From: Rhynchopus sp. YZ270_cl-10
Taxonomy: Eukaryota
Assembly (NCBI GenBank): GCA_964035575.1
Contig: OZ037836.1
Span: forward strand, 372,001 to 436,000
Reading direction: 5' to 3'
DNA length: 64,000 nucleotides
The stretch's first letter is position 1. Every line of letters starts with the position of its first letter. This document shows positions 14,401-64,000 of the stretch, piece after piece. The notes beneath the pieces were generated by a model. The model ran no database searches, was not told where the DNA came from, and was given only the letters and a program-made list of their open reading frames with translations. The translations under genes were made by a program, and so were the position numbers.

Positions 14401-14946
14401 CTTGGCCCCTTCTTTTGTATTGAAGGCGAATCCCTCGGTCTGCTCCCATTTTTGACACATGGTATATAACATCCTGCTGAAGTAGGGATCGCATCCTCTT
14501 CGGAAAAAGTGTAGTATTCTGTACGGTTCTGCGTCGTAAGAGGGGCAGCATTGGTGGGAACGAGGCTCGTTGCCCCCATTTTAATTTCGCTGAGGAGCGT
14601 CCAGAGTCGGGCAGCCTTCTCAAAGGAGCTTGGGAGGACAAGACCAATTTTTTGCGGGGTTTTTGTAATTTTTGAAGATGAAGCCTCCCCCGGTGAACTC
14701 TACTTCACATTCTCCAAGGGAAATAACACATTCAGCTCCATGAGAAGAGCGAGAAGAAAAGACCGCTATCACCATTGAATGCACCTCGTAGTACTTCGTT
14801 GTGCCAGCTTCTCGGATGACTAAGCGTTCGTACAACCTCAGAAAACGGCTAGATTTTATCAGTATGTAGGTCGTACCAACGACATAATGTTGCCCTTCCA
14901 TATCCCTCAGAGTGGGTGCTTCTCGTGTACTTCATTTGTTTTTATT

Positions 14947-15794
<848 letters not shown>

Positions 15795-26812: not shown

Positions 26813-27249
26813 TGGAGTGAAGCATGCATGTGGCGTGTTGTGGAAAATAAGGTTTTTATTTTTTTGTGTAACTCTCTGTGCAATAATGCACAGAGGGGAG
26901 AGGTCTGTGGAAAAAATGGAGATGGATAAAATTAGCTATTTTTTATCGACCAGAAAAGTCGTTTTCTTGATGAGTGTTTTCTGAGTGTGCACGAGTGCAC
27001 ACTCAGAAATCACGAATTCAAAAAAAAAAAAAGAGAAAACGACTTTTCTGAGGTGAAAACGCAGTTTTGTTGAAATTTTTCAACTTTGAGACACTTTTTG
27101 CACACAGAATTTTCATGTGTTGCCACAGAGCTGTTGAGGGACGACTCCGGTTCTGGACGACCCACACCGGGTGAGGGTGAACACGCAGCAGTAAGAGCTG
27201 CTGAGGGACTACGTCAACGAACTCGCTCACCCGTGCGGACCTCGACAGC

Positions 27250-30295: not shown

Positions 30296-31683
30296 ACCTC
30301 CACTCTCATTTTGTAAAGCTGGCTGTGTCTGGTTTGTTTTCGTGATGTGGTCTTTCAATGCTTGAAAGGGTAATGGCTGACGACACTGAGGACCTCCTTG
30401 GCCCAGAGCTGTCACGAAGTCAAGCACGGCCTGGCTGTACACTGGCGGCCTGAACACAGGTCCGCTTCTAATCTAGGCAGACGTTATCCCCATCCTCCTG
30501 TCCCTCAACCCCTTTCCCTGCTTTATGCCTCCTATGTTGTTGTGTCTTTCTTTGTTTTGTAAAGTTTGTGCAGACGAGTAGAGTAGGCAGTACCTACCAT
30601 CACCATCCCAACCTCCCTTCTTACCCTTCTTCCCGTCCTTCCCGTTATCCCCTTCCACCAGCACATCACGTCGTCATTGTGCATGTCTCTGTCATTTGCG
30701 GGCTTGATCGGGGGATTCGTCTCTGCTGCGTTTCGGACGTGCTTCAACCACAAGATGCCTCAGCTCCTCGCTATTCCTCACTTCGTTGGACACAACACTG
30801 CTGCAGCCGGAGAGGTAAATACTCGCCAACGAAGTGCAGCTGTTAGCAAAACCCGAACCTGGGGTTTCTACGTGCTCTACCTTGTTGAGTGGCGAGAGAT
30901 CCAGGGTGGTTAAAGTCTTGCAGCCGTGAAGAAAGTATCTGCCAATCTGCGTAACGTTCTTGAGTGGTGTCAGATCCAGGGTGGTTAAAGAGCAGCAGCC
31001 GTGAAGAAAGAAACTCTCAATCTCCGTAACGTTGTTGAGTGGCGAGAGATCCAGGGTGGTTAAAGAGTTGCAGCCGTGAAGAAAGCAATGGTCAATCCTC
31101 GTAACGTTCTTGAGTGGTGTCAGATCCAGGGTGGTTAAAGTCTTGCAGCCGTGAAGAAAGGATCTGCCAATCTCCGTAACGTTCTTGAGTGGTGTCAGAT
31201 CCAGGGTGGTTAAAGAGTTGCAGTCGGAAAGAAAGCAACTGTCAATCCTCGTAACGTTCTTGAGTGGTGTCAGATCCAGGGTGGTTAAAGTCTTGCAGCC
31301 GTGAAGAAAGAATCTGCCAATCTCCGTAACGTTGTTGAGTGGCGAGAGATCCAGGGTGGTTAAAGAGTTGCAGCCGTAAAGGAAAGTGACTGCCAATCAC
31401 CGTCACATTGCTCAACCCAGAGAGGTCAATACTTGTCAACGAGGTGCACTCCTTGAGGAACCCGTCTCCAATCTGTGTCACAATGGACACAGCACTGAGA
31501 TCAAGGCGCATTAACGATCCCTCCATCAAGAACCCATCAGGAACGACAGTCGTAACCTCCGCCTGCAGAAGCAAACACGCCACCTCAGGATCCTGCACCT
31601 CCTTCAACCTCTCTGGAGTCAGGTCTGTCTCACCCAACGCATGAAGTGCTGCTATGGCTTCGTACTTCAGCGTTTTTGTGAGG

Positions 31684-34220
31684 TGGGGGCCCGTTTTCGA
31701 TGCATGCACCCCTATCCGAGATAGGTGATACAATACATCGTGGGGGTGATATTACATAAGTCCATCACCGCCCCTGCTGTGCCCATCCTTCTGCTTCGTC
31801 TGCTTCTTCTTGAAGAAGCCTCCCAGCGTCGTCTGTCGCCCCTTCGAGGTGTCGTGGTGGCGGCGGCAGCAGTGCTCCAGCGTACTCTTCTCTTGCACAC
31901 AGTTCCCGCACCTCGAGAGTCTATGCTTAGTGCATGCTTCGTGTCGGATCGGTAACCCGTCGTCGTTGGAGTGGTGCGCAAAGCAGCAATGCATCAGGTC
32001 TGCCTGGGCGTTCTTCGAGCAGGCATCACACTTCGTCTTCCGGTGCAGCACACATATCGCAAACTGGAAGATCGGAACCGCTACTTCAGGTGCCTTCACG
32101 GGTGCATCCCCTGGACGCACGTGCTCATGGTGCCGGTAGCGAGCATGCGCAGATGTCTCCTGTTCAGCCCGCTGGATGAATGGTAGTGCCCTCCTGCCTC
32201 TAACTTCTGTGGAGGGGTACGCCGTCTCAGCAGAATACTCCCCCATCCATGTACCTCTCGCTCTATCGCCACCACGGAGCTCCACCTCAGACATGCCTTC
32301 GGAGCTGCGTTGCAGACGGTACGCCACACCAGCATCGTATAGCGCACGCAATGCCTTCAACGTTTCTTCTCCGCCGGCAAAGATAGGACGGCGGTCGATG
32401 CCTGTGATGGCGTTCGCCCCAAACGAAGCGAGAACATGCGTTACCTTCACCTTCCCCGGATGGAGAGAGCTCTCCGAAAAGGTTCTGAGTGAAGCCAACA
32501 TATGCCCAAAGGTGGTCGTCTTCGCCATTTCTCTGTGGGCCAGCGCTACTGGCACCACGTCGTCATCATCGTCGTCTTCCCCACTCCCGTCGTCTTCCCC
32601 CCCATTGTTGTCTTCTTCCCCAGTCCCGGCCCTCGGCTGCTTCAGCTTCGGCGCTATTCTGCCGGTCTTGTCCCCAGGTCGGATGTCCATCCCTGTGGCA
32701 ACCTCGAAGTCGATGAGCAGCTCCATGTGGGAGACTTCACGTCCAGCTTCGTCGCTCCATTGTAAACCACCCAGCCAGGAGGCAAACGCCAGCAGCAGAG
32801 CACGTCCATACGGCCACCTCCTTTTCAGGGGGGTGTAGTCCACCAAACTGTTCGCGTGTTGCGTCGTCGTGTCCAACTCCGGTGCCCACGTCCACGGGTA
32901 TCGGTCTTCTTGCAGTCGCGGGTTCGCCGCTTCCGGTCTGCTCCACTTGGAGCGTGCGATGAGGATGCGCACCATCATCTTCTGCAGGTCTGCAACACGG
33001 GCGCATTCCAAAGGTGTGTCCGGTGTGCACATGCCGCAGATAGCGAGACAGTTTGGCCAGGTCGTTCTGTCAATGTCCAACAGCAAGGGGTACTCCGCAC
33101 GAATGCTACTCCATGCTTCACATTCCCACCACAAGTGTTTGTGATTTTCGTCCACCCCCGCTTCGCAGTGAACGCAGATGGCCGAGTCCCGTATGCGCGC
33201 TCTCGCAAGTCGCACCCCCGTTATCGCACCGTCAGCTACAATGTGTCGCAGCGTCCCCGCCTCGTAATCCGTCAAACTTTTGCTTCGGGTGAGAGCAAGG
33301 GTTTTCTCCTTATCCACCCCCGCTTCAATACCCTTCAGGTTAGCTCTGCCTTTGCCATTGACCTTCGCAGTCGTCTTCGTACGGGAGAGTCGAATGAAGA
33401 ACATCCGTTCTCGCACAAAGTGGCCCAGTCTACCCAAGCTTACCGTCTTCACATCAACGATGCTCCCATCGTGCGTTTTCACCTTTGTCGTGTCTATCCA
33501 CGACCACGCAAGGCGGCTGAGGGCTCGCGCAATCAACCCGATGGGTCCTCCAGTCTTCGCCTGCTTCGCTTTCGCACGTAACCTGCACTTTTCGACCAGC
33601 GAACAGATCTCATCCGATTTGCGTATCATCGCCGCCCACGTCATGATCCTTCTGTAGTCGAATGCCACCGAGGGGTCGAGCAGATGGCCTTTCTCGAAGA
33701 CATTCAGCATGACCGGTACGCTTCGCCGATTCATCTTGTTCACGCCGTGGACCCCTTTCTCCACTGCAGTTGCAAGACTGTTCACGTATTTCCCAGGTGG
33801 GTCCTGCACCGTGATACCGTACACAGATTTCGACATCACTGCAGCTTGCATGATGCCTGCTTTCTCACCTTGAGTCAGCGGGAGGCATCCCACCTTACCT
33901 GCTAGCGGTCCGCATGCGTCGATGGTGCCTTCCAGTTTCGTCGGGAGCGTGGGCGTCCCAGCCTGTCGTGCCTGCACCGTCGCCCCCAGGCACTCCGACT
34001 TCTCGACGCGAGTAAGATCCGCGCCGTTCATCTGCACAGTTTCCTCTTCATCAGGACGGTTGCTCTGCCACGTGCTCTTCCCCGCGTGGACGCGTTGTCC
34101 CGTCAAGTCTGCAAAGTGTCCGGTGAAGGCGACACCCGCTCGCAGCTGGTCGAGGGTCTTCGTCAGGAGGTTGGTGTCGTCAGCGTACGCCAGCCCCTGC
34201 GTGCCCGTTTCCTTCTCCAC
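31684..34220 (-). mobile_element. 5'-truncated non-LTR retrotransposon (RT C-terminal half, CCHC zinc knuckle, Cys/His-rich C-terminus)
   Basis: 19-bp TSD cttcagcgtttttgtgagg at 31665-31683 and 34221-34239; AYADD, GQRVHAGKS, CLG RT motifs; CVHC..E...HLWWEC zf-RVT-like motif; uninterrupted frame to 31752; no poly(A) tail. Confidence 0.9.
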
Positions 34221-34436
34221 CTTCAGCGTTTTTGTGAGGATGATTGTGTCACCAGCACTCAGCTGCGTCATGTCCGCTCCTTCCCCCAGCGCTTCGTCTC
34301 CGAAACTCATGCAAAAACTGTCTTCAGGCAACCCCATTGCAGACGCCATCTTCCGCCGCAAGCCCTCCACTGTGCCATCTGCACCCACCTCGACTGTGTG
34401 CTGATTTGCTTTGAAATCCTCGAAGTGCACGTCCAT
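31752..34436 (-). CDS. Chimeric ORF: host UBL domain fused in frame to truncated retrotransposon protein (894 aa)
   Basis: MDVHF...SAGDTIILTKTLK|VEKETGTQGLAYADD...; open frame seen directly, expression unknown. Confidence 0.5.
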   Translation of the reverse strand: MDVHFEDFKANQHTVEVGADGTVEGLRRKMASAMGLPEDSFCMSFGDEALGEGADMTQLSAGDTIILTKTLKVEKETGTQGLAYADDTNLLTKTLDQLRAGVAFTGHFADLTGQRVHAGKSTWQSNRPDEEETVQMNGADLTRVEKSECLGATVQARQAGTPTLPTKLEGTIDACGPLAGKVGCLPLTQGEKAGIMQAAVMSKSVYGITVQDPPGKYVNSLATAVEKGVHGVNKMNRRSVPVMLNVFEKGHLLDPSVAFDYRRIMTWAAMIRKSDEICSLVEKCRLRAKAKQAKTGGPIGLIARALSRLAWSWIDTTKVKTHDGSIVDVKTVSLGRLGHFVRERMFFIRLSRTKTTAKVNGKGRANLKGIEAGVDKEKTLALTRSKSLTDYEAGTLRHIVADGAITGVRLARARIRDSAICVHCEAGVDENHKHLWWECEAWSSIRAEYPLLLDIDRTTWPNCLAICGMCTPDTPLECARVADLQKMMVRILIARSKWSRPEAANPRLQEDRYPWTWAPELDTTTQHANSLVDYTPLKRRWPYGRALLLAFASWLGGLQWSDEAGREVSHMELLIDFEVATGMDIRPGDKTGRIAPKLKQPRAGTGEEDNNGGEDDGSGEDDDDDDVVPVALAHREMAKTTTFGHMLASLRTFSESSLHPGKVKVTHVLASFGANAITGIDRRPIFAGGEETLKALRALYDAGVAYRLQRSSEGMSEVELRGGDRARGTWMGEYSAETAYPSTEVRGRRALPFIQRAEQETSAHARYRHHEHVRPGDAPVKAPEVAVPIFQFAICVLHRKTKCDACSKNAQADLMHCCFAHHSNDDGLPIRHEACTKHRLSRCGNCVQEKSTLEHCCRRHHDTSKGRQTTLGGFFKKKQTKQKDGHSRGGDGLM

Positions 34437-35619
34437 TTGTTTGTTGTGGTTTTGTAATCACTAGTCTGTGTATGGTGGTGGTGGGGTGGAGGACAAGACA
34501 AGAAATACCCCGTTTTACAGGGTTCACTCGAAAATGTCGTTATTTCTGCAGTTCCTCCGTTCGCACCGCGGGTCTGGCTGGGGTCCTCTTCCCCGTGGGT
34601 GAGGCTATGTGGAGCTAATCCCTGCGCCGCTGATCTGCGAGAACGAAATGAACATTGCTGCAAGGACTGTGCTGTGTATGCACACCAATGCGAGGTTTGC
34701 ATCTGATATGCCCTCCACCCTCTGCACCCTCTGCACCACCAAGGCAGGAAGCAAGGAAGAGGAGAAATGGATATGATCGTCAACTAGAGAGACACATCGG
34801 CCTCGTAGTTCCTCATTTCCGCTTTTGGAGTTCACCTCACTCAAAAACAAAAAGCAATAGAGATTGGGATGGTTCCCAAGGGATGGGGGTGCGATTCTTT
34901 TGTTTTGTTTCCTTTTATATTTTTTGATAGCTATTTTCCCCCGCGAGCCAAAATCCCTCTTTCGCGGTGCCTCGATCGGAAATATCACTTTATTTGTTTT
35001 TTTTTTTCCCCTTTTTTTTGAAAAAAATATTCTTGTCTGAATAAACACCCGAGTGGACGTGTTTAGACGCTATTTTTCATGTCAGTTGATATCCCCCATA
35101 TTCGTCACAAAAGGATGACCTGTCTCACCATCCATTGATAAAATCGGTACGTACGTCATAAAATCGTGAAACGGAAAAGTGGCGAGAGAGATTCTAAATA
35201 TTTGAACACTTGACCCCAGGACCACACACACAAAAAGAAGAACTCAACCTCACTTCCGCTACGGTCTCTTGATTTGAAAAAAAAATAAAAATGAAAACTC
35301 ACGCACCATATGGGTTGATTTTGTTCTTTTCCCTGTCGTAGGTGCACAACTGCACGACACTAAGCACATTCGTTCCGGTATGTCGACAATCTTTGTTTCT
35401 ATCCATTTACGTATACAAAGGTACACTCATCACATACATCACTACGTCGTCTCTTGAAGGAAATATTTGCGCATGCAAAAGCCCACAACATGCAGGCATG
35501 ATGCGTCATCATTGAATTGCAATAAAATAAAAAGTAAAAACAAAACCACAACAACAACAACAACAACCAGGGAAGGAAGAAAATAGAATAAACAAAACAA
35601 AACAAAACACACTACGGTT

Positions 35620-36925
35620 CTATGCAGCCTGGTCGTACATCTTCCTCATGACCGGGTGGCAGGTCCTCTCCAGCTTCCTCTGGGAGGACTGGAACTCCTC
35701 CTTGGTGGCCTCAGTGCCGCAGAGCTCGAGGGCACCGTTGCAGGCGTCCATGACCTTCTTCTTGTCGTCGTCGCCGACAAGCCCGCCGGTTCTGTCGTCC
35801 ATGAGGGTGGTGACCATCTGGTAGGCGTAGGTCTCGAGCTCGTGTCTGGCGTCGACACGCTCGCGTGCCTGCTTGTCGGCCTCAGCGAACTTCTCTGCGT
35901 CGTTGCACATGTCGTCAATCTCCTTCTGGGACAGACGGCCCTTGTCGTTGGTGATGGTGACCTGCGACTTCTTCCCGGTCGACTTGTCCTCGGCAGACAC
36001 GTCCATGATGCCGTTCGCGTCGACGTCAAAGGTCACCTCAATCTGGGGCACGCCACGCGGGGCCGGCGGGATCCCGGTCAGGTCGAAGGTGCCGAGCTGG
36101 TGGCAGTCCTTCGTCATCGCCCGCTCCCCCTCGAACACACAGATGTTCACCACAGGCTGGTTGTCCGCACACGTCGAGAACTCCTGGCTCTTCTTCGTCG
36201 GGATCGTCGTGTTCCTCTTGATCAGCGGTGTCATCACACCCCCGTCCGTCTCAATCCCCACAGTCAGGGGGGTCACGTCCAGCAGCAGGATCTGCTCCGT
36301 CTGCGTGCTCTTTCCTCCGGTCAGCACGAAGGCCTGCACCGCAGCGCCAAAGGCAACAGCCTCGTCGGGGTTGATCGACTTGTTCAGGTCCTTTCCGCCG
36401 AAGAAGTCCGACACCATCGCCTGGATCTTCGGGATACGGGTCGATCCTCCGACCAGCACAACCTCCGTGATGGCCCGCTTCTCAATCTTCGAGTCGTTCA
36501 GCACAGACTCCACAGGGCGCAGGCACGACTTGAACAGGTCCGCGCACAGCTCCTCGAACTTCGCACGTGTGATCGACGAGTAGAAGTCCGTCCCCTCAAA
36601 CAGCGAGTCGATCTCAATGCTGGTCTGTGCCGCCGACGACAGCGCACGCTTGGCACGCTCACAGGCAGTGCGCAGACGGCGCAGCGCACGCTGGTTCGTC
36701 GTCAGGTCCTTCTTGTGCTTCTTCTTGAACTCCTCCACGAAGTGGTTCACCATCCGGTTGTCGAAGTCCTCGCCTCCCAAGTGGGTGTCTCCCGCAGTCG
36801 CCTTCACCTCGAAGATCCCCCCGTCAATCGCCAGAAGCGTCACATCGAAGGTACCGCCACCCAGGTCGAAGATCAGGATGTTCTTCTGCCCCGCGCTCGC
36901 GTTGTCGAGTCCGTAGGCAATCGCC

Positions 36926-36957
<32 letters not shown>

Positions 36958-37464
36958 GTCCATCCCCGAGATCGCCCCTGCGTCCTTCGTCGCCTGACGC
37001 TGCGAGTCGTTGAAGTACGCAGGCACAGTCACAACGCTCTTCTTCACCTCCTTCCCAAGGAACTGCTCCGCCGTCTCCTTCATCTTCACAAGGATCATCG
37101 CAGAGATCTCCTCAGGCCTGAACGTCTTCGTCGTCCCCATGAACGACACCTCAATCAGCGGCTTCCCGTCCTCCTTCGCCACAACCTTGAACGGCCAGTG
37201 CTTCATGTCGCTCTGCACAGACGAGTCCTCCAGCTTGCGCCCGATCAGACGCTTCGCGTCGAACACCGTGTTCGTCGGGTTCATCGCCACCTGGTTCTTC
37301 GCCGCATCTCCGATCAGACGCTCGCTGTCTGCGAACGCCACGTACGACGGCGTCGTCCGGTTCCCCTGGTTGTTCGCAATGATCTCCACACGCTCGTTCT
37401 GCCACACTCCCACACACGAGTAGGTCGTTCCCAAGTCAATACCGATGGCTCCGTCGTAGGACAT
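35620..37464 (-). CDS. HSP70: Atypical cytosolic-type HSP70, copy 1 (614 aa)
   Basis: [32 protein letters not shown] signatures; ends MYDQAA without GGMP/EEVD. Confidence 0.97.
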
Positions 37465-37869
37465 TGTAGTGTTGTTTTGTGGTCTTTGGTTTTTGATAGA
37501 AAAAATAAGGTAAAAAGTGATGAGCTGTTTGTTGTGTGTGTTGTGTGTTGTGTGTGGGTGTTGGGGTGGGTAAGTGGTTGTGGGTATTGGGTGGTCAGAG
37601 GGTGGACACTTGGTTGGTGGACGGGAGGGTGTCAGTGTGGATGGTGTTGTGGGACGTGTCTTTGGTGTTGTGCGTGTGGGGGGAGATCTGCACAGATCGA
37701 GAAGGTGGACAAGTGTCTCAAAGTACTACAACATGTAAAACAGCTGTTTTTATTCCGCTTTTCTGTTCAGTTTCCTTTGGGGGGTGTGGGGAAGTAAAGA
37801 GAAAAATGCGAGGGCTGAAAAAGATGTTCTTGGCAAGTAAAGTAACGAGCAGCTAGTCTAAAAAAATGC

Positions 37870-45440: not shown

Positions 45441-46973
45441 TCACATGCACACACATTTGCACTTGGTATCGTCCACGAGGCTACCGCTATAGTCATGCAC
45501 ATATTCTGACACAACACTGCTTGATCCTGTAACGTTGATGCTGCTTGTACGTATGTTGCATCCTTTTAGGAAGCCTTTCTCAATGTGCTGCACACTCGTC
45601 CACCCAGATACGTTAAGTGTTTTCAATGCGCTGCAGTTAGAGAGAAAGTAGTCCCCCAACTGTGTCACATTGTTCCACCCAGAAATATCCAGTGTGGTCA
45701 ATGAGGCGCAGTTGGAAAAAAAGTTTCTGTCAATGTGAGTAACACTTCTCCATCCAGACAAGTCAAGGCTTCGCAATGAGGTGCAGTTGGAGAAGAAAGA
45801 CTTCCCAACCCGCGTCACATTGTTCCACCCAGAAAGGTCAAGTGTGGTCAATGAGGTGCAGTTGTGGAGGAAGCCCTCATCAACCTGCGTCACATCGTTC
45901 CACCCAGACAACTCAAGTGTTCGTAATGCGATGCAGGAGGAGAGAAAGTAGTCGCCCAGTTGCGTCACATTGTTCCACCCAGAAATATCTAGTGTGGTCA
46001 ATGAGGTGCAGCCGGAGAGAAAGAACTCATCAACCCGCGTCACATTGTTCCACCCAGAGAAGTCAAGGACTTGCAATGCAGTGCAGGAGGAGAGAAACAA
46101 TCGCTCAATGTGTGCCACGTTGTTCCACCCAGACAAGTCAAGTGTTCGCAATCCGGTGCAGTTGGAGAGAAAGTCGTGCCCTACGTGCGTCGCATTGTTC
46201 CACCCAGAAATATCCAGTGTGGTCAATGAGGTGCACTTGGAGAGAAAGTACTCATCAACCCGCGTCACATTCCTCCACCCAGAGAAGTCGAGAGTTCGTA
46301 ATGAGGTGCAGGAGGAGAGAAAGGCGCTCCCTACGTGCGTCACATTGTTCCACCCGGAAATATCTAGTGTGGTCAATGAGGTGCAGTTGTAGAGGAAGTT
46401 GTTGTCAACCCGCGTCACATTGTTCCACCCAGACAAGTCAAGTGTTCGCAAGGCGCTCATCCCGTCGAGGAAGAAGGACTCAACATGCGTGACATTGCTC
46501 CACCCAGATAAATCAGCAGTGTGCAATGCGTTGCAGAGTTTGAGAAAGAATGCACCTACTGCAGTCACACCTGGCACACCACTGAGATCAAGTTCTGAGA
46601 ACGTACCACCTTGTAAGAAGAAATGGGGTATCTCAGTAACAACCTCTGCCTGCAGAAACAAATGAACCAGCTTGGGATCTGTCAGATCCTCGAACTCATC
46701 TGACGTCAGCCTTGTCACACCCAAGTCACGAAGAGCTGCAATGGCGTCGTCCTTCTGCGACTTCGTCTTCGTCAGCACAACTGTGTCCCCAGCACTCAGC
46801 TGCGTCGCGTCGTCTCCTTCGGCCAGCAGCTTCTCTCCGAAGCTCATGTCAAAGCCGTCTTCGCGCAACTCTGCTGCAGTCGCCACCTTCCGCCGTATGT
46901 CCGCAGTTGTATCATCCACACCCACCTCGACTGTGTACTTCTCTCCGTCAAAGCTCTTCACACATATTTCCAT
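45441..46973 (-). CDS. UBL-LRR-CaaX protein, copy 11 (510 aa, ~14 LRRs, longest)
   Basis: ATG at 46973; ends DDTKCKCVCM. Confidence 0.92.
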   Translation of the reverse strand: MEICVKSFDGEKYTVEVGVDDTTADIRRKVATAAELREDGFDMSFGEKLLAEGDDATQLSAGDTVVLTKTKSQKDDAIAALRDLGVTRLTSDEFEDLTDPKLVHLFLQAEVVTEIPHFFLQGGTFSELDLSGVPGVTAVGAFFLKLCNALHTADLSGWSNVTHVESFFLDGMSALRTLDLSGWNNVTRVDNNFLYNCTSLTTLDISGWNNVTHVGSAFLSSCTSLRTLDFSGWRNVTRVDEYFLSKCTSLTTLDISGWNNATHVGHDFLSNCTGLRTLDLSGWNNVAHIERLFLSSCTALQVLDFSGWNNVTRVDEFFLSGCTSLTTLDISGWNNVTQLGDYFLSSCIALRTLELSGWNDVTQVDEGFLHNCTSLTTLDLSGWNNVTRVGKSFFSNCTSLRSLDLSGWRSVTHIDRNFFSNCASLTTLDISGWNNVTQLGDYFLSNCSALKTLNVSGWTSVQHIEKGFLKGCNIRTSSINVTGSSSVVSEYVHDYSGSLVDDTKCKCVCM

Positions 46974-47795: not shown

Positions 47796-49101
47796 TCATG
47801 CAGCCTGGTCGTACATCTTCCTCATGACCGGGTGGCAGGTCCTCTCCAGCTTCCTCTGGGAGGACTGGAACTCCTCCTTGGTGGCCTCAGTGCCGCAGAG
47901 CTCGAGGGCACCGTTGCAGGCGTCCATGACCTTCTTCTTGTCGTCGTCGCCGACAAGCCCGCCGGTTCTGTCGTCCATGAGGGTGGTGACCATCTGGTAG
48001 GCGTAGGTCTCGAGCTCGTGTCTGGCGTCGACACGCTCGCGTGCCTGCTTGTCGGCCTCAGCGAACTTCTCTGCGTCGTTGCACATGTCGTCAATCTCCT
48101 TCTGGGACAGACGGCCCTTGTCGTTGGTGATGGTGACCTGCGACTTCTTCCCGGTCGACTTGTCCTCGGCAGACACGTCCATGATGCCGTTCGCGTCGAC
48201 GTCAAAGGTCACCTCAATCTGGGGCACGCCACGCGGGGCCGGCGGGATCCCGGTCAGGTCGAAGGTGCCGAGCTGGTGGCAGTCCTTCGTCATCGCCCGC
48301 TCCCCCTCGAACACACAGATGTTCACCACAGGCTGGTTGTCCGCACACGTCGAGAACTCCTGGCTCTTCTTCGTCGGGATCGTCGTGTTCCTCTTGATCA
48401 GCGGTGTCATCACACCCCCGTCCGTCTCAATCCCCACAGTCAGGGGGGTCACGTCCAGCAGCAGGATCTGCTCCGTCTGCGTGCTCTTTCCTCCGGTCAG
48501 CACGAAGGCCTGCACCGCAGCGCCAAAGGCAACAGCCTCGTCGGGGTTGATCGACTTGTTCAGGTCCTTTCCGCCGAAGAAGTCCGACACCATCGCCTGG
48601 ATCTTCGGGATACGGGTCGATCCTCCGACCAGCACAACCTCCGTGATGGCCCGCTTCTCAATCTTCGAGTCGTTCAGCACAGACTCCACAGGGCGCAGGC
48701 ACGACTTGAACAGGTCCGCGCACAGCTCCTCGAACTTCGCACGTGTGATCGACGAGTAGAAGTCCGTCCCCTCAAACAGCGAGTCGATCTCAATGCTGGT
48801 CTGTGCCGCCGACGACAGCGCACGCTTGGCACGCTCACAGGCAGTGCGCAGACGGCGCAGCGCACGCTGGTTCGTCGTCAGGTCCTTCTTGTGCTTCTTC
48901 TTGAACTCCTCCACGAAGTGGTTCACCATCCGGTTGTCGAAGTCCTCGCCTCCCAAGTGGGTGTCTCCCGCAGTCGCCTTCACCTCGAAGATCCCCCCGT
49001 CAATCGCCAGAAGCGTCACATCGAAGGTACCGCCACCCAGGTCGAAGATCAGGATGTTCTTCTGCCCCGCGCTCGCGTTGTCGAGTCCGTAGGCAATCGC
49101 C

Positions 49102-49133
<32 letters not shown>

Positions 49134-49640
49134 GTCCATCCCCGAGATCGCCCCTGCGTCCTTCGTCGCCTGACGCTGCGAGTCGTTGAAGTACGCAGGC
49201 ACAGTCACAACGCTCTTCTTCACCTCCTTCCCAAGGAACTGCTCCGCCGTCTCCTTCATCTTCACAAGGATCATCGCAGAGATCTCCTCAGGCCTGAACG
49301 TCTTCGTCGTCCCCATGAACGACACCTCAATCAGCGGCTTCCCGTCCTCCTTCGCCACAACCTTGAACGGCCAGTGCTTCATGTCGCTCTGCACAGACGA
49401 GTCCTCCAGCTTGCGCCCGATCAGACGCTTCGCGTCGAACACCGTGTTCGTCGGGTTCATCGCCACCTGGTTCTTCGCCGCATCTCCGATCAGACGCTCG
49501 CTGTCTGCGAACGCCACGTACGACGGGGTCGTCCTGTTCCCCTGGTTGTTCGCAATGATCTCCACACGCTCGTTCTGCCACACTCCCACACACGAGTAGG
49601 TCGTTCCCAAGTCAATACCGATGGCTCCGTCGTAGGACAT
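47796..49640 (-). CDS. HSP70: Atypical HSP70, copy 2 (614 aa)
   Basis: Protein identical to copy 1; ATG at 49640; TGA stop and a different 3' flank. Confidence 0.97.
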
Positions 49641-49836
49641 TGTAGTGTTGTTTTGTGGTCTTTGGTTTTTGATAGAAAAAATAAGGTAAAAAGTGATGAG
49701 CTGTTTGTTGTGTGTGTTGTGTGTTGTGTGTGGGTGTTGGAGTGGGTAAGTGGTTGTGGGTATTGGGTGGTCTAGTACTAAAAAGTGCAAAACAGCTGCT
49801 TTTACTCCGCTTTTGTGTTCATTTTACTTTGGGGGG

Positions 49837-55008: not shown

Positions 55009-58000
55009 TCACCAGGTGGGCTGCTCGTATCTGTCCTCAAGACACACAGCTTCACCTTCAATGTCCTGAGGCAGCAGTCCAGTGCTGTAGAAGCTTTCGC
55101 TCTGCGTTGGTGTGCCCTTCTGTGCCTGCCTGCAGAAGAACACCGCCACCGCCACAGCAAGCAGCAGGCACGTGCCCAGTGCTGCGATCACCACCAGTGC
55201 TGCTGTGCTCAGCAGCGGTGCGTCCGCCTCCTCCACCGGCACAGGTGTGGGCAGCAGCGCACCCGCAGGCAGCGAGGTGTGCGGCACAGGCTGCGCTGAA
55301 GGCGATGATGATGCAGCTGCGGGTGATGTGGGTGCAGGTGTCTCAGTGGCAGACGTCAGCGGTGCTTTTGGTGCTTCTGTCGCAGGTGACCCTGTTGCTG
55401 GCAGTGGTGCAGACGTTGGATTCTTTGTGTCTGGTGCAGGAGTAACAGGTGCTTGCGTCTCAGGTGCAGGCGTCGGCGGCGATTCAGTCACAGGTGCGTG
55501 AGTAACAGGTGCACTCGTCTCAGGTGCATTGGTATCGGGTGCATTCGTCAGTGGCACTTCAGTCTCAGGTGCACCTGTCAGTGGGGATTCCGTCAAGGGT
55601 ATACCCGAAAGCGGCGATTCTGTGAGGGGAGCGTGAGTCAGAGGTGCGTGAGTCAGAGGTGCGTGAGTCAGTGGGGCTTCTGTTTCGCCTGCTTCTATCT
55701 GCGGCACTTGCGTCACTGGTGTATTGGTCAGAGGCGACTGTGTCCCAAGTGTTTCTGTCTGCGGTGCTTGTGTCACTGTCGGGTCAGGCACCGACGATGG
55801 CAGGGCTGTCTCCGGCACTGGTGTGTAGATGGCTGGGATGTCTGTCGGCACAACACCGTTGCAGCTCCACCCAAACACAAAGCGTAAGTGAACACCTGGT
55901 ACAAACCAGCCACTGTTGTTCGCTGTGATGTGGAAGAGGCCGCTGTTCGCGAAGTCTGCAGTCATGTTTGATGACGGGACGCTCCAGTCACTCGTAAGCG
56001 GCTGCCCTGTTGCGCTGTACACCTCTTTGCCTGTGCTGTCCACCATTGTCACACGTGCCCAGTCTTCAAAAAAGTTGAGCCACGCTGCCACCGACAGCAC
56101 ACCGTAACACTGCACAGTCCAGGAGAAAGTGTTCACGCCTGGTACCGAATATGCGCTCGTCCCATAGAATGACCCAAGTGACCTGCTGTACGTGCCACTG
56201 TCGGCCAGGGTGAGACTATGTGTCGCATTCGTGCCTGGTGCAGGTGGAATCACAGGTGCCTCCTCACACGTCCAGTTCAAGCTAAACGATCCTGTTGTGG
56301 AGTACGTCATGTACTGCCAGCTGGCAAAACGCACCACCATGTTCCCATCAGCAGGGTAGCTCGCTCGGTAGCGTCTCGCGTCTGTCAGAGTGTCAAGGTT
56401 GTAACCGTAGCTGTTCTCCAGCGTGAGGACTTGGCCCATCGAGTCAAGATCAAGGTTGAACTCGGTGTGCAGTGTGCCCGTGCATGAGAGGTACCAACAC
56501 GCCGTCGGAAGTTCCTCATCCCCACTAGCCTGAAAGGCAAACGACCCGTTGGCACTGTCCCCCACATCTGAGCACAGCGCAATGGGCACAGCGGTGGGCG
56601 GCACCCTCGTCTCTGGAACAGCAGTTCTCGGTGCGTAAGGCAGCTCAGGGCTTGCCGCGTCACACGCCCAAGACATGAGGAGAACGTCGTCGTGCCACTT
56701 TGTGCTGTGCACAACATGCATCTGAAAGACACCCCCAGCAGGATACGTCCTGCTTGTGTTGATCATCGAACCCCCCGTCCCGTTCGCAAAGAACACCTCC
56801 CGGCCAGTTCCGTCCAAAAAGGTCACATTCGTCCAACTCGTGGGACGTACCTCCAACGACACAGCAAGCGTCCCGAGACACTGCACAGCAAAGCAGTGTG
56901 ATGCAATTGCAGATAAGACCCGGCGGTAGGTGCCGACAGGTGCCAGGGTCAGGCACTCTGCACTGTCGATGCCTGGTGCAGGTGGTGGCACTGGCGCTGC
57001 TTCGCACGTCCAGTCAAAGGTGAAGTTCCAGTTCTTTGGGTACTCCGTCACGGAGGACAGTGTCAACATGCCGTTAGCAGGGTAGCTCGTCACCAGGTGT
57101 CGTGGTAATATTGCGGAACCCTCGATCTCCATTAGCTCGTACCCGTCCGCGTTGTGTAGCGTCAGCACCGGCCTACCGTATCCCACATCAAGGGACACAT
57201 TGATGTGCACAGTCCCCTTGCACTGCACTGTCCAGCACTGCGACACTTCAAACGTGCTGTGCAGCGGAGCCTCCAATGCAACACACGGTGCTGTTGGTAC
57301 AGGCGTCTCAGGTGCACCTGTCAGAGGTGCTGATGTCCCACCGCCAATTGCAGGAAGTACAGGCACAGCAGCGTTGCACCCCCACGCAAGAGCAAAGTAC
57401 GCACTATGAAAGCGGGTGGGATACACGGAGAGCACGACGTGCACGAACATGTTCCCGTCGCTTGCATAACGCCCGCCAGTCCCGGCTGTGTCGCTGATAT
57501 GTTCCAGTGCGGTACCGTCACTTCCCTCAACTGTGATGTTGAGACTTGAAGGCCAATCCGTAAGCACGTCCATGTCCAGCTCAACGACACCTCTGCACGG
57601 GATGGCCAGACAGCGGACTCTCTCACCTGCCGACAACGGCATGTTGTACGTCCCGACAGCGCCCAGTGTGAGACACGTCGCACTGTCGACGCCAGGTGCG
57701 GGCAGGGTGACTGCACCTGTGTCGCATGTGTAATCTATCTCGAAGGCAGCGTCACTAGCATAGTGCTCGTAAGTGTAGCGCAACGTCATGTCCCCGTCTG
57801 CGGGATAGCTTGCGACGTAGCTGTACGCCTCACCCGTGGAGTAGGAGGAAGGGTCAGGGCTCTGCAGCGCTGCCAGCTGGTACCCCGCAGAGTTCTCGAG
57901 ACTCAGCACAGCGCCGTACCCGCGTTTCATTGTGAACTTCACGTGCAACGAGCCTTTGCACGTCAACTCCCAACACGAGTTGCCCAAGGTGGCGCCGTTA

Positions 58001-58161
58001 GTATACACAAACGGAGACGGCGGCAGTGCTGTGCAAGGCGCAATCGGTGTCTGTGTGTCTGGCTGAGACGTGGGTGGTGCCATAGTTGGCGGGTCTGACG
58101 GGAGCACAACTGTTGCGGACACGGCACACACCAGAAGCGAGGTGCACAGTGGCAGTAGCAT
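55009..58161 (-). CDS. Type I surface membrane protein: signal peptide, three tandem pairs of Cys-bounded beta (CUB-like) domains, T-x-A-P mucin stalk, TM helix, short tail (1050 aa)
   Basis: Thrice-repeated CWxxxCxGxxH / SYPAxG / PAPG units; THAP/TEAP/TNAP repeats; hydrophobic AALVVIAALGTCLLLAVAVAVFFC. Confidence 0.8.
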   Translation of the reverse strand: MLLPLCTSLLVCAVSATVVLPSDPPTMAPPTSQPDTQTPIAPCTALPPSPFVYTNGATLGNSCWELTCKGSLHVKFTMKRGYGAVLSLENSAGYQLAALQSPDPSSYSTGEAYSYVASYPADGDMTLRYTYEHYASDAAFEIDYTCDTGAVTLPAPGVDSATCLTLGAVGTYNMPLSAGERVRCLAIPCRGVVELDMDVLTDWPSSLNITVEGSDGTALEHISDTAGTGGRYASDGNMFVHVVLSVYPTRFHSAYFALAWGCNAAVPVLPAIGGGTSAPLTGAPETPVPTAPCVALEAPLHSTFEVSQCWTVQCKGTVHINVSLDVGYGRPVLTLHNADGYELMEIEGSAILPRHLVTSYPANGMLTLSSVTEYPKNWNFTFDWTCEAAPVPPPAPGIDSAECLTLAPVGTYRRVLSAIASHCFAVQCLGTLAVSLEVRPTSWTNVTFLDGTGREVFFANGTGGSMINTSRTYPAGGVFQMHVVHSTKWHDDVLLMSWACDAASPELPYAPRTAVPETRVPPTAVPIALCSDVGDSANGSFAFQASGDEELPTACWYLSCTGTLHTEFNLDLDSMGQVLTLENSYGYNLDTLTDARRYRASYPADGNMVVRFASWQYMTYSTTGSFSLNWTCEEAPVIPPAPGTNATHSLTLADSGTYSRSLGSFYGTSAYSVPGVNTFSWTVQCYGVLSVAAWLNFFEDWARVTMVDSTGKEVYSATGQPLTSDWSVPSSNMTADFANSGLFHITANNSGWFVPGVHLRFVFGWSCNGVVPTDIPAIYTPVPETALPSSVPDPTVTQAPQTETLGTQSPLTNTPVTQVPQIEAGETEAPLTHAPLTHAPLTHAPLTESPLSGIPLTESPLTGAPETEVPLTNAPDTNAPETSAPVTHAPVTESPPTPAPETQAPVTPAPDTKNPTSAPLPATGSPATEAPKAPLTSATETPAPTSPAAASSSPSAQPVPHTSLPAGALLPTPVPVEEADAPLLSTAALVVIAALGTCLLLAVAVAVFFCRQAQKGTPTQSESFYSTGLLPQDIEGEAVCLEDRYEQPTW

Positions 58162-59703
58162 TTGTCAGTGTGGTTGTTGTTACTTTCGAGAGGTGGAAGT
58201 ACCTGGGTGGTGGTTGTGAGTGGTGATAGGGGTGGAAAAACGACATGAAAAACAACTGAACGCAGGGCACGTGTCATATTACTGTCATCGTTCTTAAGAA
58301 TCTTGGTGCGGTTTGCACGCCTCCTTAATGTCTCGCCTTCTCAACACCCTGCAGCCCTTCCAAGACTGTGAGACACGACCCCCGGCAGAATACACATCGT
58401 GTGCAGAAGAGGACGGAGGCGGCCTATCGTGGGCTGATGCACACGTTGGTTGTGGTGCAGGAGGAGCTGTGCCGAACGGGAGCACGCGCGAAGGTGCGGA
58501 TCTGCGAGACGGGGTGCGAGTCGAGCCGTTGCTGGCACAGCAGCAGGCGGCTGCACGATAAGCTGAGGAATAAGGCAGTGACAGTGGAGGTGGCGCACTT
58601 CATTTTCACAGTCCAACTACCATACCGGCTACCGGAGGTCGACTGTGGCGGTGATGCAGACCGCAATGCGAAGCAAGTGGAGGGGGGCTTCGAGGTGTAC
58701 CTCTGGAGCAACTGCGCCATCCATGCACCAAGCTATCTTGAACAGAAATCCACGTCAGCTGTGGGATGTGCATGTTAACTTCTACCATCGCTTCGCGTCG
58801 GAAATTCTCAAAGTCGTCTTCAGGCAGCGCACTGCAGACACCACTCTCACCCGTCTCGTCTCACTTGGGTCAACCACAGACAGCTTCAAGACATCTGTGT
58901 CATAGGAAAGCTGCACATTCGGAACCTTCTTTGTATTGCCACGGTTGCGATGGTATGCGGTCCTTGAATAGGGTTAGGAGGCCGCCAGGGAGCATGAGGT
59001 AACACGAGGCAACCTCAAAAATACAATTGGAAGAAGAAGAGCGAAGCAGGTTCACGAGTTGAAGTGACCAATGCATAAATCTAGATTGCAGATTCAAAAG
59101 TATCGGAGAACAAGTAAATCGAAGAAAAAAGGGAGCGTGCGAGGAGAGAAAAGAGAGTGGAGAGGGGAGAGTGGGGGGAAGCTGACTTCTGTCTTTTTGA
59201 GCCAAGTGCAAAAACAACATTGTTTCTGGCATGTCGCCGGAAGCAACAGTGTTGCATCAAAACAAAAAAGAACAAAACAAAACACAAAGATGGCAAGCCT
59301 CCCAAACCGCTTGAAACCAAAACTGAAAAAGGGAAAAAAGGAAAAAGGCAAAAGGTAAGGGGCGGGTAAAAACAGACACGCACAGCACCTGAACATATGA
59401 TAAAAACAAGTAAGTGATAACAGTGATTATCTTTCTTTTGTTTTCTTTTTTAATGAAAACTTAGTTGTCTCAGTGTAGACACCCGAGGATGTGTTCCACT
59501 GGACAAAACGCTTTTCCGTAACTGTTGATTATCTTCTTTTTCTTGTTTCTGTTTCTTTCCGATCGTTTTCGTAATATCTACACGTTGATTTTTGAATTGC
59601 AATAAAATCAAAAGTAAAAACCAAACCACCAACAACCACAATAACCAGATAAAGAAGAAAAAGAAAACATAAGAAACAAAACAAAACAAAACACACTACG
59701 GTT

Positions 59704-61009
59704 CTATGCAGCCTGGTCGTACATCTTCCTCATGACCGGGTGGCAGGTCCTCTCCAGCTTCCTCTGGGAGGACTGGAACTCCTCCTTGGTGGCCTCAGTG
59801 CCGCAGAGCTCGAGGGCACCGTTGCAGGCGTCCATGACCTTCTTCTTGTCGTCGTCGCCGACAAGCCCGCCGGTTCTGTCGTCCATGAGGGTGGTGACCA
59901 TCTGGTAGGCGTAGGTCTCGAGCTCGTGTCTGGCGTCGACACGCTCGCGTGCCTGCTTGTCGGCCTCAGCGAACTTCTCTGCGTCGTTGCACATGTCGTC
60001 AATCTCCTTCTGGGACAGACGGCCCTTGTCGTTGGTGATGGTGACCTGCGACTTCTTCCCGGTCGACTTGTCCTCGGCAGACACGTCCATGATGCCGTTC
60101 GCGTCGACGTCAAAGGTCACCTCAATCTGGGGCACGCCACGCGGGGCCGGCGGGATCCCGGTCAGGTCGAAGGTGCCGAGCTGGTGGCAGTCCTTCGTCA
60201 TCGCCCGCTCCCCCTCGAACACACAGATGTTCACCACAGGCTGGTTGTCCGCACACGTCGAGAACTCCTGGCTCTTCTTCGTCGGGATCGTCGTGTTCCT
60301 CTTGATCAGCGGTGTCATCACACCCCCGTCCGTCTCAATCCCCACAGTCAGGGGGGTCACGTCCAGCAGCAGGATCTGCTCCGTCTGCGTGCTCTTTCCT
60401 CCGGTCAGCACGAAGGCCTGCACCGCAGCGCCAAAGGCAACAGCCTCGTCGGGGTTGATCGACTTGTTCAGGTCCTTTCCGCCGAAGAAGTCCGACACCA
60501 TCGCCTGGATCTTCGGGATACGGGTCGATCCTCCGACCAGCACAACCTCCGTGATGGCCCGCTTCTCAATCTTCGAGTCGTTCAGCACAGACTCCACAGG
60601 GCGCAGGCACGACTTGAACAGGTCCGCGCACAGCTCCTCGAACTTCGCACGTGTGATCGACGAGTAGAAGTCCGTCCCCTCAAACAGCGAGTCGATCTCA
60701 ATGCTGGTCTGTGCCGCCGACGACAGCGCACGCTTGGCACGCTCACAGGCAGTGCGCAGACGGCGCAGCGCACGCTGGTTCGTCGTCAGGTCCTTCTTGT
60801 GCTTCTTCTTGAACTCCTCCACGAAGTGGTTCACCATCCGGTTGTCGAAGTCCTCGCCTCCCAAGTGGGTGTCTCCCGCAGTCGCCTTCACCTCGAAGAT
60901 CCCCCCGTCAATCGCCAGAAGCGTCACATCGAAGGTACCGCCACCCAGGTCGAAGATCAGGATGTTCTTCTGCCCCGCGCTCGCGTTGTCGAGTCCGTAG
61001 GCAATCGCC

Positions 61010-61041
<32 letters not shown>

Positions 61042-61548
61042 GTCCATCCCCGAGATCGCCCCTGCGTCCTTCGTCGCCTGACGCTGCGAGTCGTTGAAGT
61101 ACGCAGGCACAGTCACAACGCTCTTCTTCACCTCCTTCCCAAGGAACTGCTCCGCCGTCTCCTTCATCTTCACAAGGATCATCGCAGAGATCTCCTCAGG
61201 CCTGAACGTCTTCGTCGTCCCCATGAACGACACCTCAATCAGCGGCTTCCCGTCCTCCTTCGCCACAACCTTGAACGGCCAGTGCTTCATGTCGCTCTGC
61301 ACAGACGAGTCCTCCAGCTTGCGCCCGATCAGACGCTTCGCGTCGAACACCGTGTTCGTCGGGTTCATCGCCACCTGGTTCTTCGCCGCATCTCCGATCA
61401 GACGCTCGCTGTCTGCGAACGCCACGTACGACGGCGTCGTCCGGTTCCCCTGGTTGTTCGCAATGATCTCCACACGCTCGTTCTGCCACACTCCCACACA
61501 CGAGTAGGTCGTTCCCAAGTCAATACCGATGGCTCCGTCGTAGGACAT
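59704..61548 (-). CDS. HSP70: Atypical HSP70, copy 3 (614 aa)
   Basis: Protein identical to copy 1; ATG at 61548; TAG stop and 3' flank similar to copy 1. Confidence 0.97.
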
Positions 61549-62273
61549 TGTAGTGTTGTTTTGTGGTCTTTGGTTTTTGATAGAAAAAATAAGGTAAAAA
61601 GTGATGAGCTGTTTGTTGTGTGTGTTGTGTGTTGTGTGTGGGTGTTGGGGTGGGTAAGTGGTTGTGGGTATTGGGTGGTCAGAGGGTGGACACTTGGTTG
61701 GTGGACGGGAGAGTGTCAGTGTGGATGGTGTTGTGCGTTGGGGGGGGGGGATCTGCACAGATCGAGAATACGTGAAGAACACACGGGCAGAAGGAGACAA
61801 GAAGAAGGCAGACATGGTGCCACTGAGACGATAGAGGTGTAAGACAAAGGGGACACCTCTGTGTGCAGAACTGTATGCTGCAAGGCTGTGATGGGACGGG
61901 AGGGATGTCTCTCTCTCTGTGGGGGTGGACAAGTGGCTCAAAAGTACTAAAAAGTGCAAAATGGCATTTTTTATTCAGATTTTTAAATTTTTTGGCTTAT
62001 TATTTGGAAGAAATATTCGCCAGTTTTGTATTTTCATAACTTTTCAGTTTCTCTATCCTCAGCGATATGAAGCGCAAACACGCCGTTTTCAATTTAATTC
62101 GCCGACCGATACTGACTCACGAAGTTGCTGTGTTAAAAACTCCTTCCCGCAAACCCACAAACCCACAAACGAGAAGGGAGCAACCATTTGGCTAGCTGGT
62201 GTGGTTGATAGCAATATTGGTGTTAGTAATGTTCTGCTCGTATTTCTAAAAAATAAAACGTGTTCCCGTTTTT

Positions 62274-64000
62274 TTATCGTGGGTAGTATCTAGATCCAGT
62301 TCCAGGTGATTCCAGGTTTCTCAGATTTGTCTGGCTGTTGATCAGCTGGAGCTTTTGTAGATTATCCAACACGAAGGAGAGTGCCTCAACGCGGTCCTTG
62401 TCATTTATTTTTGACTCAGTCCCAGCGGCGGTGACCGTATTCGCCTTCTTCGTGAAGACACGCTTGCTGAGAGGCGTGGTGCACGTTAGGTCCTTCGCCA
62501 GCGACAAGCAGAACATGATGTCCTCACCCTGCTTTGTGGCGAGCTGCCACTTCTTCTTTTCCTTCCCATCTGCCAAGCTATCGGGCTGATACGCTGTCTC
62601 CAACTCTGAAAGGGCCTGTGGGTCGGCCACGCGTAGGGGGTGCGGTGTGAAGAAGGCATTGCGGCACTTGTCGACGTCGTACAGGATAGCCTGCTCCAAG
62701 TGGGCGCTCATGCAAAAGGGTTCCTTCGGGGGGTACTTCCTGTGGGCCCAGCGTGCAGGGGAGCCCGCGGGGCACTTTGCTTCGCTTAAGATGGGAAGCC
62801 ATTTTTCCACCAGGCCCCACACGCCAGGAACTGTAATTTTGTCGCCCCACTTCAGCTTCCACGTCAGCTGCCACTTCGGCTTCGGCTTCAGCTTCAACTT
62901 CGGCTTCAGCTTCAGCTCTGGCTTCAGCTTCAGCTTCAGCTTCAGCTCTGGCTTCAGCTTCAACTTCGGCTTCGGCTTCAGCTCCGGCTTCAGCTCTGGC
63001 TTCAGCTCTGGCTTCAGCTCTGGCTTCAGCTCTGGCTTCAGCTCTGGCTTCAGCTCTGGCTTCAGCTCTGGCTTCAGCTCTGGCTTCAGCTCTGGCTTCA
63101 GCTCTGGCTTCAGCTTCAACTTCGGCTTCGGCTTCAGCTTCAGCTCTCGCTTCAGCTCAGGCGTGCACTCTGCGAACTCCTCAACGTTGTCATCAACCTG
63201 AAGCGCGTAGCGCACCCCCATGGGCCAGCACACTTCCTCGACGAAAGCCTTCATCACCTCACGGACCATGGGGATGCCGCGGCCACCCCACGGCAGCCGC
63301 ACGAGCACGTGGCGCGCAGGTGGACGCGGAGGATGCAGTGCAGACTGTGGAGACTTCCGAATCTGCCCAATACGTGTTCTAAACGCATCAACCTCGCCAG
63401 GCTCGCAGAAGACGATGACGGGGTACGGACACAACCCGTCGTCGCACCAGAGGTTCGGTTTGAAGTTCTCGTGGCGGCGATGCAGCACGGAGGGCACGCA
63501 CACAACAACTTTGTCCTCAAATTGCGCCGTGGCCTTGGTGAGAAACTGATTCATCGTTGAGGGAACATAAAACTTGAAATGATCACGCTGCCAGATGTGC
63601 GAAGTCTCCACCAGAGGCACGCCGTCGCATGTACGGCAGTCGTTCACAACCTTCTCGCCGAACTTGTTCCCAGCGGAATCAACAGCAGGTGTCAGTTCCT
63701 TCTTCTCAAGTCCCTCACCCATGCACGGAACGTCATCACGAACACTCTCTGCGATCGCGCCCACCTGGGTGATGTCCGAGTCTGGGATGCCAAGACAATT
63801 CTCCCGGGTAACACTGGTGTCAGAGTGCATATGGTTCGGTGCCTGGCCCCTGGCGAGCTCAAGTAATTTTTTTTGATTTCGGGTCATTTTGCGGGGCTTC
63901 GTTCCCACGTCAAGACCTCTGAAACTCTCTGGTGTCATGTCGGTATCACCCAAGTCACGAAGAGCTGCAATGGCGTCGTCCTTCTGCGACTTCGTCTTCG
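62274..64000 (-). CDS. Family linker fused to a GREB1/TAGT/JGT-like GT-A glycosyltransferase domain with a (KPEL/KLKP)n insert; 5' end beyond the window
   Basis: Frame open to the edge: KTKSQKDDAIAALRDLGDTDMTPESFRGL then unrelated sequence; motifs VCVPS..HR, IVFCEPGE, LVRLP..GRGIPMVR, ALQVDDNV, QAILYD, GEDIMFC in the TAGT order. Confidence 0.65.
   Translation of the reverse strand, partial: KTKSQKDDAIAALRDLGDTDMTPESFRGLDVGTKPRKMTRNQKKLLELARGQAPNHMHSDTSVTRENCLGIPDSDITQVGAIAESVRDDVPCMGEGLEKKELTPAVDSAGNKFGEKVVNDCRTCDGVPLVETSHIWQRDHFKFYVPSTMNQFLTKATAQFEDKVVVCVPSVLHRRHENFKPNLWCDDGLCPYPVIVFCEPGEVDAFRTRIGQIRKSPQSALHPPRPPARHVLVRLPWGGRGIPMVREVMKAFVEEVCWPMGVRYALQVDDNVEEFAECTPELKRELKLKPKPKLKLKPELKPELKPELKPELKPELKPELKPELKPELKPELKPELKPELKPKPKLKLKPELKLKLKLKPELKLKPKLKLKPKPKWQLTWKLKWGDKITVPGVWGLVEKWLPILSEAKCPAGSPARWAHRKYPPKEPFCMSAHLEQAILYDVDKCRNAFFTPHPLRVADPQALSELETAYQPDSLADGKEKKKWQLATKQGEDIMFCLSLAKDLTCTTPLSKRVFTKKANTVTAAGTESKINDKDRVEALSFVLDNLQKLQLINSQTNLRNLESPGTGSRYYPR

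Follow-up and report, generated by a model that had tools for sequence, protein, structure and literature searches.

Few eukaryotic enzymes of the TAGT glycosyltransferase family are known to us, namely JGT and GREB1. JGT is described as transferring glucose from UDP-glucose onto hmU in double-stranded DNA (PMC10057400) and is placed in the TAGT/GREB1 family (PMC7968844). In GREB1, according to the latter source, a TAGT-related glycosyltransferase domain is fused to other domains, and the protein O-GlcNAcylates protein (PMC7968844). The phage T6/T2 beta-glucosyl-HMC-alpha-glucosyltransferase (PF20691, GT-A fold) is reported, for T6, to act on phage cytosine that is already glucosylated (PMC13216743). 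A further phage type is represented by the TAGT of Nonlabens (Persicivirga) phage P12024L (YP_006560426.1), which adjoins a PF12851 oxygenase and has relatives in IMG/VR (e.g., L212). These P12024L-type TAGTs are stand-alone phage proteins of about 250 aa. As regards genomic setting, the integrated domains of plant NLRs provide an analogy: there, a single gene of a rapidly evolving LRR cluster has acquired a foreign domain.

Here we describe an open reading frame (ORF) that lies at the edge of a 64,000-nucleotide stretch of Rhynchopus sp. YZ270_cl-10 DNA, the whole of which is referred to as the window. The ORF joins a truncated linker of a ubiquitin-like (UBL)-LRR gene family, a decayed fragment of a truncated haemoglobin and a complete, divergent domain predicted to be a TAGT glycosyltransferase (Table 1). 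In the account that we prefer, and in which belief and doubt are about evenly balanced, this mosaic is likely the product of ectopic recombination within an unstable array of genes and is likely expressed from the 5' end of the UBL-LRR family, with a UBL presumed upstream of the linker.

Table 1. Positions of the parts of the mosaic ORF and of an interrupted gene in the same window
Feature	Position	Strand	Description
Mosaic ORF	62274..63998	minus	574 codons without stop; 5'-open at window edge, stop at 62274
Truncated UBL-LRR linker	63912..64000	minus	first ~30 residues (KTKSQKDDAIAALRDLGDTDMTPESFRGL), cut before the conserved DPKLIHLFLQAEV part
Segment without multicopy match	63795..63911	minus	39 codons; weak, uncertain resemblance to globin E-helix region
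Degenerate group-1 truncated haemoglobin fragment	63639..63794	minus	H helix of one domain, then A-B helices of the next
GT-A N-terminal half (predicted)	63159..63518	minus	PS..R strand, FCEPGE strand, LP..GI..VR helix, QVDDN metal-binding motif (predicted)
12-bp tandem repeat, read (KPEL)n/(KL)n	62847..63157	minus	in frame, directly after DDN motif; splits GT domain
GT-A C-terminal half (predicted)	62340..62846	minus	QAILYD strand, GED motif and helix, AAG where family has GG
C-terminal 21 codons and stop	62274..62339	minus	overlaps short multicopy repeat; GC3 0.38
Interrupted UBL-LRR gene	30695-34457	minus	linker split by 5'-truncated non-LTR retrotransposon (YADD motif)

Frame, array and breakpoint

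A preliminary description of this locus had placed a linker and a series of glycosyltransferase motifs in one frame. All are present, in the order given: the linker (KSQKDDAIAALRDLGDT...FRGL) is followed by VCVPS (63489-63503), FCEPGE (63393-63410), LVRLP (63291-63305), GRGIPMVR (63261-63284), QVDDNV (63183-63200), QAILYD (62676-62693) and GEDIMFC (62508-62528). The claim that the linker runs in frame into the glycosyltransferase is correct as to the shared frame; it overlooked that 131 codons intervene, a globin-derived piece among them. This spacer contains no stop in the ORF frame, as against 4 and 8 in the other two frames; a stop-free spacer was reached by 51 of 20000 shuffles, a figure that overstates the case because the globin piece is derived from coding sequence. 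Linker, globin piece and glycosyltransferase domain are each read in their native frame, and GC3 amounts to 0.71-0.73 in the two halves of the domain, compared with a GC of 0.57-0.61. A spacer open in one frame only, three native frames and the high GC3 together favor selection on the frame as a whole. Downstream of the ORF lies a short multicopy non-coding element (62020-62147) that is also found upstream of several UBL-LRR genes.

The window harbours a tandem array whose genes combine a ubiquitin-like N-terminus with a conserved linker and BspA-type LRRs, most copies ending in CVCM. The ubiquitin profile of Pfam matches the copy at 45444-46973 with E 4.6e-4, below the cut-off. We counted 13 occurrences of a 23-nt linker motif in the window, where none is expected, and in all 12 of the other copies a UBL precedes the linker in frame; judging from these paralogs, the UBL of the mosaic ORF would lie beyond the window edge at 64000. 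The last ~90 nt of the window resemble the 12 other copies, with a mean identity of 0.57-0.99 per 10 nt, down to a breakpoint at position ~63912, beyond which identity drops to only 0.02-0.29 per 10 nt. The linker is thus retained for its first ~30 residues only, and the ORF lacks both the LRRs and the C-terminal CaaX-like CVCM. Self-BLAST found no LRR sequence after the linker, in agreement with the earlier proposal that the LRRs have been replaced in this copy. If an LRR gene had merely been interrupted by an insertion, its remainder should follow the junction; none was found there, and this possibility was rejected. In five public sequence runs (X1-X5), the summed contig depth over 63912-64000 is several hundred times that over the glycosyltransferase domain, hinting that the UBL-LRR family may be very large in this genome; linker contig depth is not a copy number.

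A second unusual member of the array helps to judge what an in-frame join means here. Another UBL, at 31755-34457, continues in frame into a truncated non-LTR reverse transcriptase, the two forming a frame of 901 codons. The retrotransposon is flanked by a 19-bp target-site duplication and the rest of the LRR gene, which ends in a basic tail and not in CVCM, continues after the insert. This fusion is a plain insertion, and in-frame fusions thus arise by accident in this array; joining in frame to a UBL is, on its own, no evidence of a designed platform. The suggestion that UBL and linker form a portable platform, reminiscent of integrated decoys, found no direct support, given that the linker is cut after ~30 residues, that the ORF includes a globin fragment and that the UBL-reverse transcriptase join is an insertion. 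The analogy with plant NLRs is also limited: in these an intact receptor has gained the domain, whereas in the ORF the LRRs are gone, and an immune role of the array would be hypothetical. Among the literature matches listed, nothing relevant to a diplonemid UBL-LRR expansion was seen.

Other sequences are interspersed in the window. Three near-identical copies of a cytosolic HSP70 (35623-37725, 47799-49823 and 59704-61974, minus strand, ~614 aa) lie among the UBL-LRR genes. Cytosolic HSP70s usually end in an EEVD tail, which is missing from all three. The HSP70 sequences and the placement of the genes on one strand would suit a euglenozoan, probably a diplonemid. A TTG/CAA trinucleotide is repeated ~300 times at 14900-15800, and an ORF at 25289-26935 (minus) weakly resembles FUT8-type fucosyltransferases (Pfam E 0.1). 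A predicted surface protein of 1051 aa (55009-58164, minus), with no match in Pfam, comprises recurring Cys-containing domains, a stalk rich in Thr and Pro, and a hydrophobic segment at the C-terminus.

The junction at 63912 is real DNA. The stretch is present in five of seven listed public runs, from two studies, one of which runs may itself be the source of the window. Single contigs cover 63083-63966 (X1, X2), 63480-63966 (X3), 63677-63975 (X4) and 63728-63966 (X5). Those of X2, X3, X4 and X5 cross the junction without a difference, and X1 bridges it too; an assembly chimera at this position was rejected on these grounds. The bridging contigs, of unrecorded kind, speak for a DNA junction and are silent on expression, and they end inside the multicopy linker, short of the UBL. 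The depth of the junction contig is about half that of the contig carrying the glycosyltransferase (223.6 vs 375.4 in X4, 67.4 vs 144.9 in X5). This may reflect a further copy that has a different 5' end, or only breaks of the assembly graph at the globin repeat.

The first of these options touches on a reading that we consider unlikely, in which the glycosyltransferase is a free-standing gene translated from a downstream ATG and the linker is the in-frame stub of a broken UBL-LRR gene. Five in-frame Met codons precede the core of the domain (e.g., ATG at 63722 or 63554), the linker is cut in mid-motif, and the case at 31755-34457 illustrates a chance in-frame join; the halved depth in X4 and X5 would add a weak hint of a second copy. 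However, linker and enzyme are connected by the stop-free spacer, contig depth does not measure copy number, the contig breaks coincide with the multicopy globin piece, and X1-X3 hold the junction and the glycosyltransferase in a single contig.

The haemoglobin-derived piece

The segment at 63639-63794 is of globin origin. It is matched at roughly 85-90% by many short contigs of high depth in runs X2-X5 and so belongs to a family that is multicopy elsewhere in the genome. When the piece was compared with plasmids by tblastn, two of the three matches were group-1 truncated haemoglobins (E 0.7). Bacterial globins align with it at 18 of 22 residues over 63729-63794 (H helix) and at 9 of 18 over 63633-63686 (B helix), and single BLASTP comparisons gave E values of 2e-11 and 2e-8. 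All the compared globins (L097, L098 and L099) score above the cut-off of Pfam Bac_globin. Two of them, L097 and L098, were retrieved with a pattern built on the globin idea, so that L099, from the plasmid search, is the independent one.

The match to group-1 truncated haemoglobins covers the H and A-B helices. The piece is a fragment of a globin: it produces no Pfam globin match, and relative to a group-1 truncated haemoglobin it is permuted and misses the F-G helices with the proximal His. It would consequently be unable to work as a globin. The order of helices, H and then A-B, suggests a donor with tandem globin domains, which would imply that the genome holds a multicopy, probably tandem-domain, family of group-1 truncated haemoglobins. 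Our literature search found no description of a truncated haemoglobin in Diplonema. The decay of the piece points to opportunistic shuffling.

The predicted glycosyltransferase domain

The identification of the C-terminal part as a TAGT/GREB1-like GT-A domain, made in the preliminary description from motifs, is supported by several weak tests that agree, none of them formally significant. We regard the part as probably a divergent member of the family that includes GREB1, JGT and the phage base glycosyltransferases. The Pfam TAGT profile (PF20691) scores 12.7 bits with the ORF (E 0.12) and 12.1 bits with the N-terminal half (E 0.18), short of the 27.5-bit cut-off, and no other glycosyltransferase family in Pfam matches at E<=10. 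Pfam matches to MRP-S25 and SspN were below cut-off and were set aside. In the ESM atlas, TAGT clusters come first for the N-terminal half (0.92; 26 of 30 matches); 167-169 features are shared, marginally fewer than the 170 usual for true members. For the C-terminal half, a cluster with 23% TAGT appears at rank 13; the two atlas results count as one source.

Profiles made from phage proteins behaved unevenly. Among 909 frames compared with a broad HMM of 47 phage TAGTs, the ORF came out on top (E 0.089), matching in two collinear stretches. The sequences of this HMM were gathered from three subfamilies, 30 of them at random from two large sets and part with patterns that included the ORF sequence, so that this test leans towards its answer. 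A P12024L-type HMM retrieved the ORF at E 0.98, and it was missed by HMMs of a second subfamily and of 120 T6/phiJL001-type TAGTs. The profile-to-sequence score of the N-terminal half was reached by none of 2000 shuffles and none of 81 control windows; that of the C-terminal half was reached by 12 of 2000 shuffles and exceeded by one of 74 control windows. An earlier block test (2/1000 and 16/1000) is less reliable, as its blocks were chosen with the motifs known. The N-terminal half is 28-31% identical to the closest phage TAGTs, and pairwise BLASTP of the ORF against four TAGTs gave no match. As to the T6/T2 enzyme (PMC13216743), to whose Pfam family the predicted domain is weakly matched, R and DD align; neither pairwise BLAST nor the subfamily HMM connects the two.

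At the level of single residues, 12 columns are at least 80% conserved among the 47 TAGTs. Seven are identical in the ORF (R, R, D, D, E, D, G) and two are conservative; two glycines have become L and A, respectively, and an Arg is left unaligned. These counts are taken from the broad-HMM search alignment, hmmalign having aligned only the central part (3/12). The ORF contains, in order, P[ST]..R, an R on the helix that precedes the DxD strand and DD[DN], as well as a C-terminal ED motif (GEDIMFCL aligns to nEDtdlsL). The G after the ED helix and the terminal GG, read as L and AG, are not preserved. With P12024L-type TAGTs the ORF shares motif order and spacing (IP[TS]..R, VEP.E, LP.{4}GI..VR..IK, Q[LV]DD[DN], ED). 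The phage proteins differ from the ORF in retaining GG, and they are devoid of UBL, globin piece and repeat.

The repeat, absent from the earlier account, interrupts the domain by ~100 residues. The TAGT of phage phiRSL1 carries an insertion at the same place, after the DDN motif. The contigs of X1, X2, X4 and X5 have 63 letters where the window has 219 and are thus 156 nt shorter; whether a real variant or an assembly effect, the difference keeps the frame. An intron removing the repeat need not be invoked since the repeat is in frame.

Structural models bear on the fold with qualifications of their own. A single-sequence AlphaFold model (pLDDT 39) displays the order of strands and helices, and its VIA and BFVD matches are meaningless. 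With 30 TAGT rows as a guide, a second model attained pLDDT 79; it matches TarS, TarP and UGGT at E 0.016-0.08, a partly circular result as the model is biased by its alignment. In Foldseek, the top PDB rows for this TAGT-guided model are mostly GT-A enzymes, and none attains E<=0.001.

Searches for relatives of the domain returned little. Residues 135-574 gave 14 matches to unrelated families, apparently through the KPEL repeat, and residues 135-282 matched none of 48 candidates. No relatives were found in viral contigs, metagenome contigs, phage records, PDB sequences, PHROGs or NCBIfam. Mycobacteriophages Cooper and Nigel yielded no PF20691 match, and in a genome sample six of seven TAGT-search matches were below cut-off and looked like ordinary GT2 proteins.

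One could envision the entire ORF as a chimera of recent origin and without function, a product of recombination in which stops have simply not yet accumulated. The decayed globin piece, the 12-bp repeat expanding inside the domain, the lost glycines and the C-terminus running into a repeat would all fit such an origin, as would the failure to find a close homologue in viral and metagenome contigs and among the 48 candidate proteins. D. papillatum is, moreover, reported to have many scattered gene fragments (PMC10161547). Yet the globin piece is ~10-15% of bases away from its multicopy relatives with the frame still intact, the predicted metal-binding and catalytic acidic residues are kept, and the GC3 bias resembles that of coding genes. 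We consider this possibility improbable and retain the view of a mosaic gene with a predicted enzyme.

Possible function and origin

The mosaic gene appears to us real, and the predicted enzyme likely. The ORF likely encodes a nucleotide-sugar-dependent transferase, with hydroxymethyl-pyrimidine DNA as the most likely substrate. In GT-A enzymes, a DxD-type motif holds a divalent metal and the nucleotide-sugar. By this chemistry, the DDN motif would bind Mn2+ or Mg2+ together with a nucleotide-sugar (UDP-glucose or UDP-GlcNAc being the likeliest), and the aspartate of the GED motif would activate a hydroxyl acceptor. Judging by the family, hydroxymethyl-pyrimidines of DNA would be the likeliest acceptor, in line with JGT and the phage TAGTs; protein Ser/Thr, as for GREB1, would be the alternative. 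Behind the DDN strand, the KPEL repeat would form a protruding loop. Animal GREB1 differs in its size (1949 aa) and in its Zn-binding and inactive SF2 helicase domains, both absent from the ORF. No TET/JBP gene is found among the window ORFs listed.

Recombination would have placed the glycosyltransferase behind the 5' end of the UBL-LRR family. UBL and linker would then act as a borrowed N-terminal tag rather than as an evolved sensing platform, and the globin piece, having lost its haem-binding core, would likely be a passive spacer. A JGT paralogue is plausible as the donor, D. papillatum being reported to encode all base-J proteins; a viral donor of the domain is possible.

The predicted domain would belong to the same family as kinetoplastid JGT, and the host lineage is likely related. 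We know of no UBL-linker or globin piece in JGT. It is nonetheless tempting to ask whether the ORF could be the organism's own base-J glucosyltransferase, a JGT orthologue with an oddly acquired N-terminus. The family assignment and the low, single-copy-like depth of the glycosyltransferase contigs would be compatible with this, D. papillatum is said to encode counterparts of all base-J proteins (PMC10161547), and both J enzymes have been traced to the euglenid-diplonemid-kinetoplastid ancestor (bioRxiv 10.64898/2026.07.29.740908). The seven supplementary files of PMC10161547 that were searched contain no JGT entry, a search that may not extend to section 8 of Additional file 1. On the other hand, no relative at E<=1 turned up among the 48 candidates (proteins of 315-1005 aa), a weak argument as the search needs shared 5-mers, and a conserved housekeeping enzyme would be unlikely to bear a repeat insertion and recent chimeric parts. 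We regard this identity as very unlikely and return to the mosaic gene with a donated domain.

The architecture would be new, the enzyme family already known; a UBL/TAGT fusion of this kind was not described in the literature searched, key papers lying outside that search. A bolder proposal, and in our estimate a decidedly unlikely one, would make the UBL and linker an exchangeable N-terminal module and see in the ORF a new branch of the TAGTs, expressed and active in glycosylating DNA or protein. Such an enzyme, arisen within a protist LRR array, would be either a second writer of a base-J-like mark or an effector of defence, in analogy with the domains integrated into plant immune receptors. 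Should the ORF be silent or its frame accidental, the locus would be only a well-documented piece of genome debris. As it stands, it illustrates how parts of three unrelated families can be combined into one new gene within a tandem array. With its acidic motifs intact and no close relative in the searches run, the divergent TAGT could be a new DNA-base or protein glycosyltransferase, and the predicted enzyme would be amenable to direct assay.
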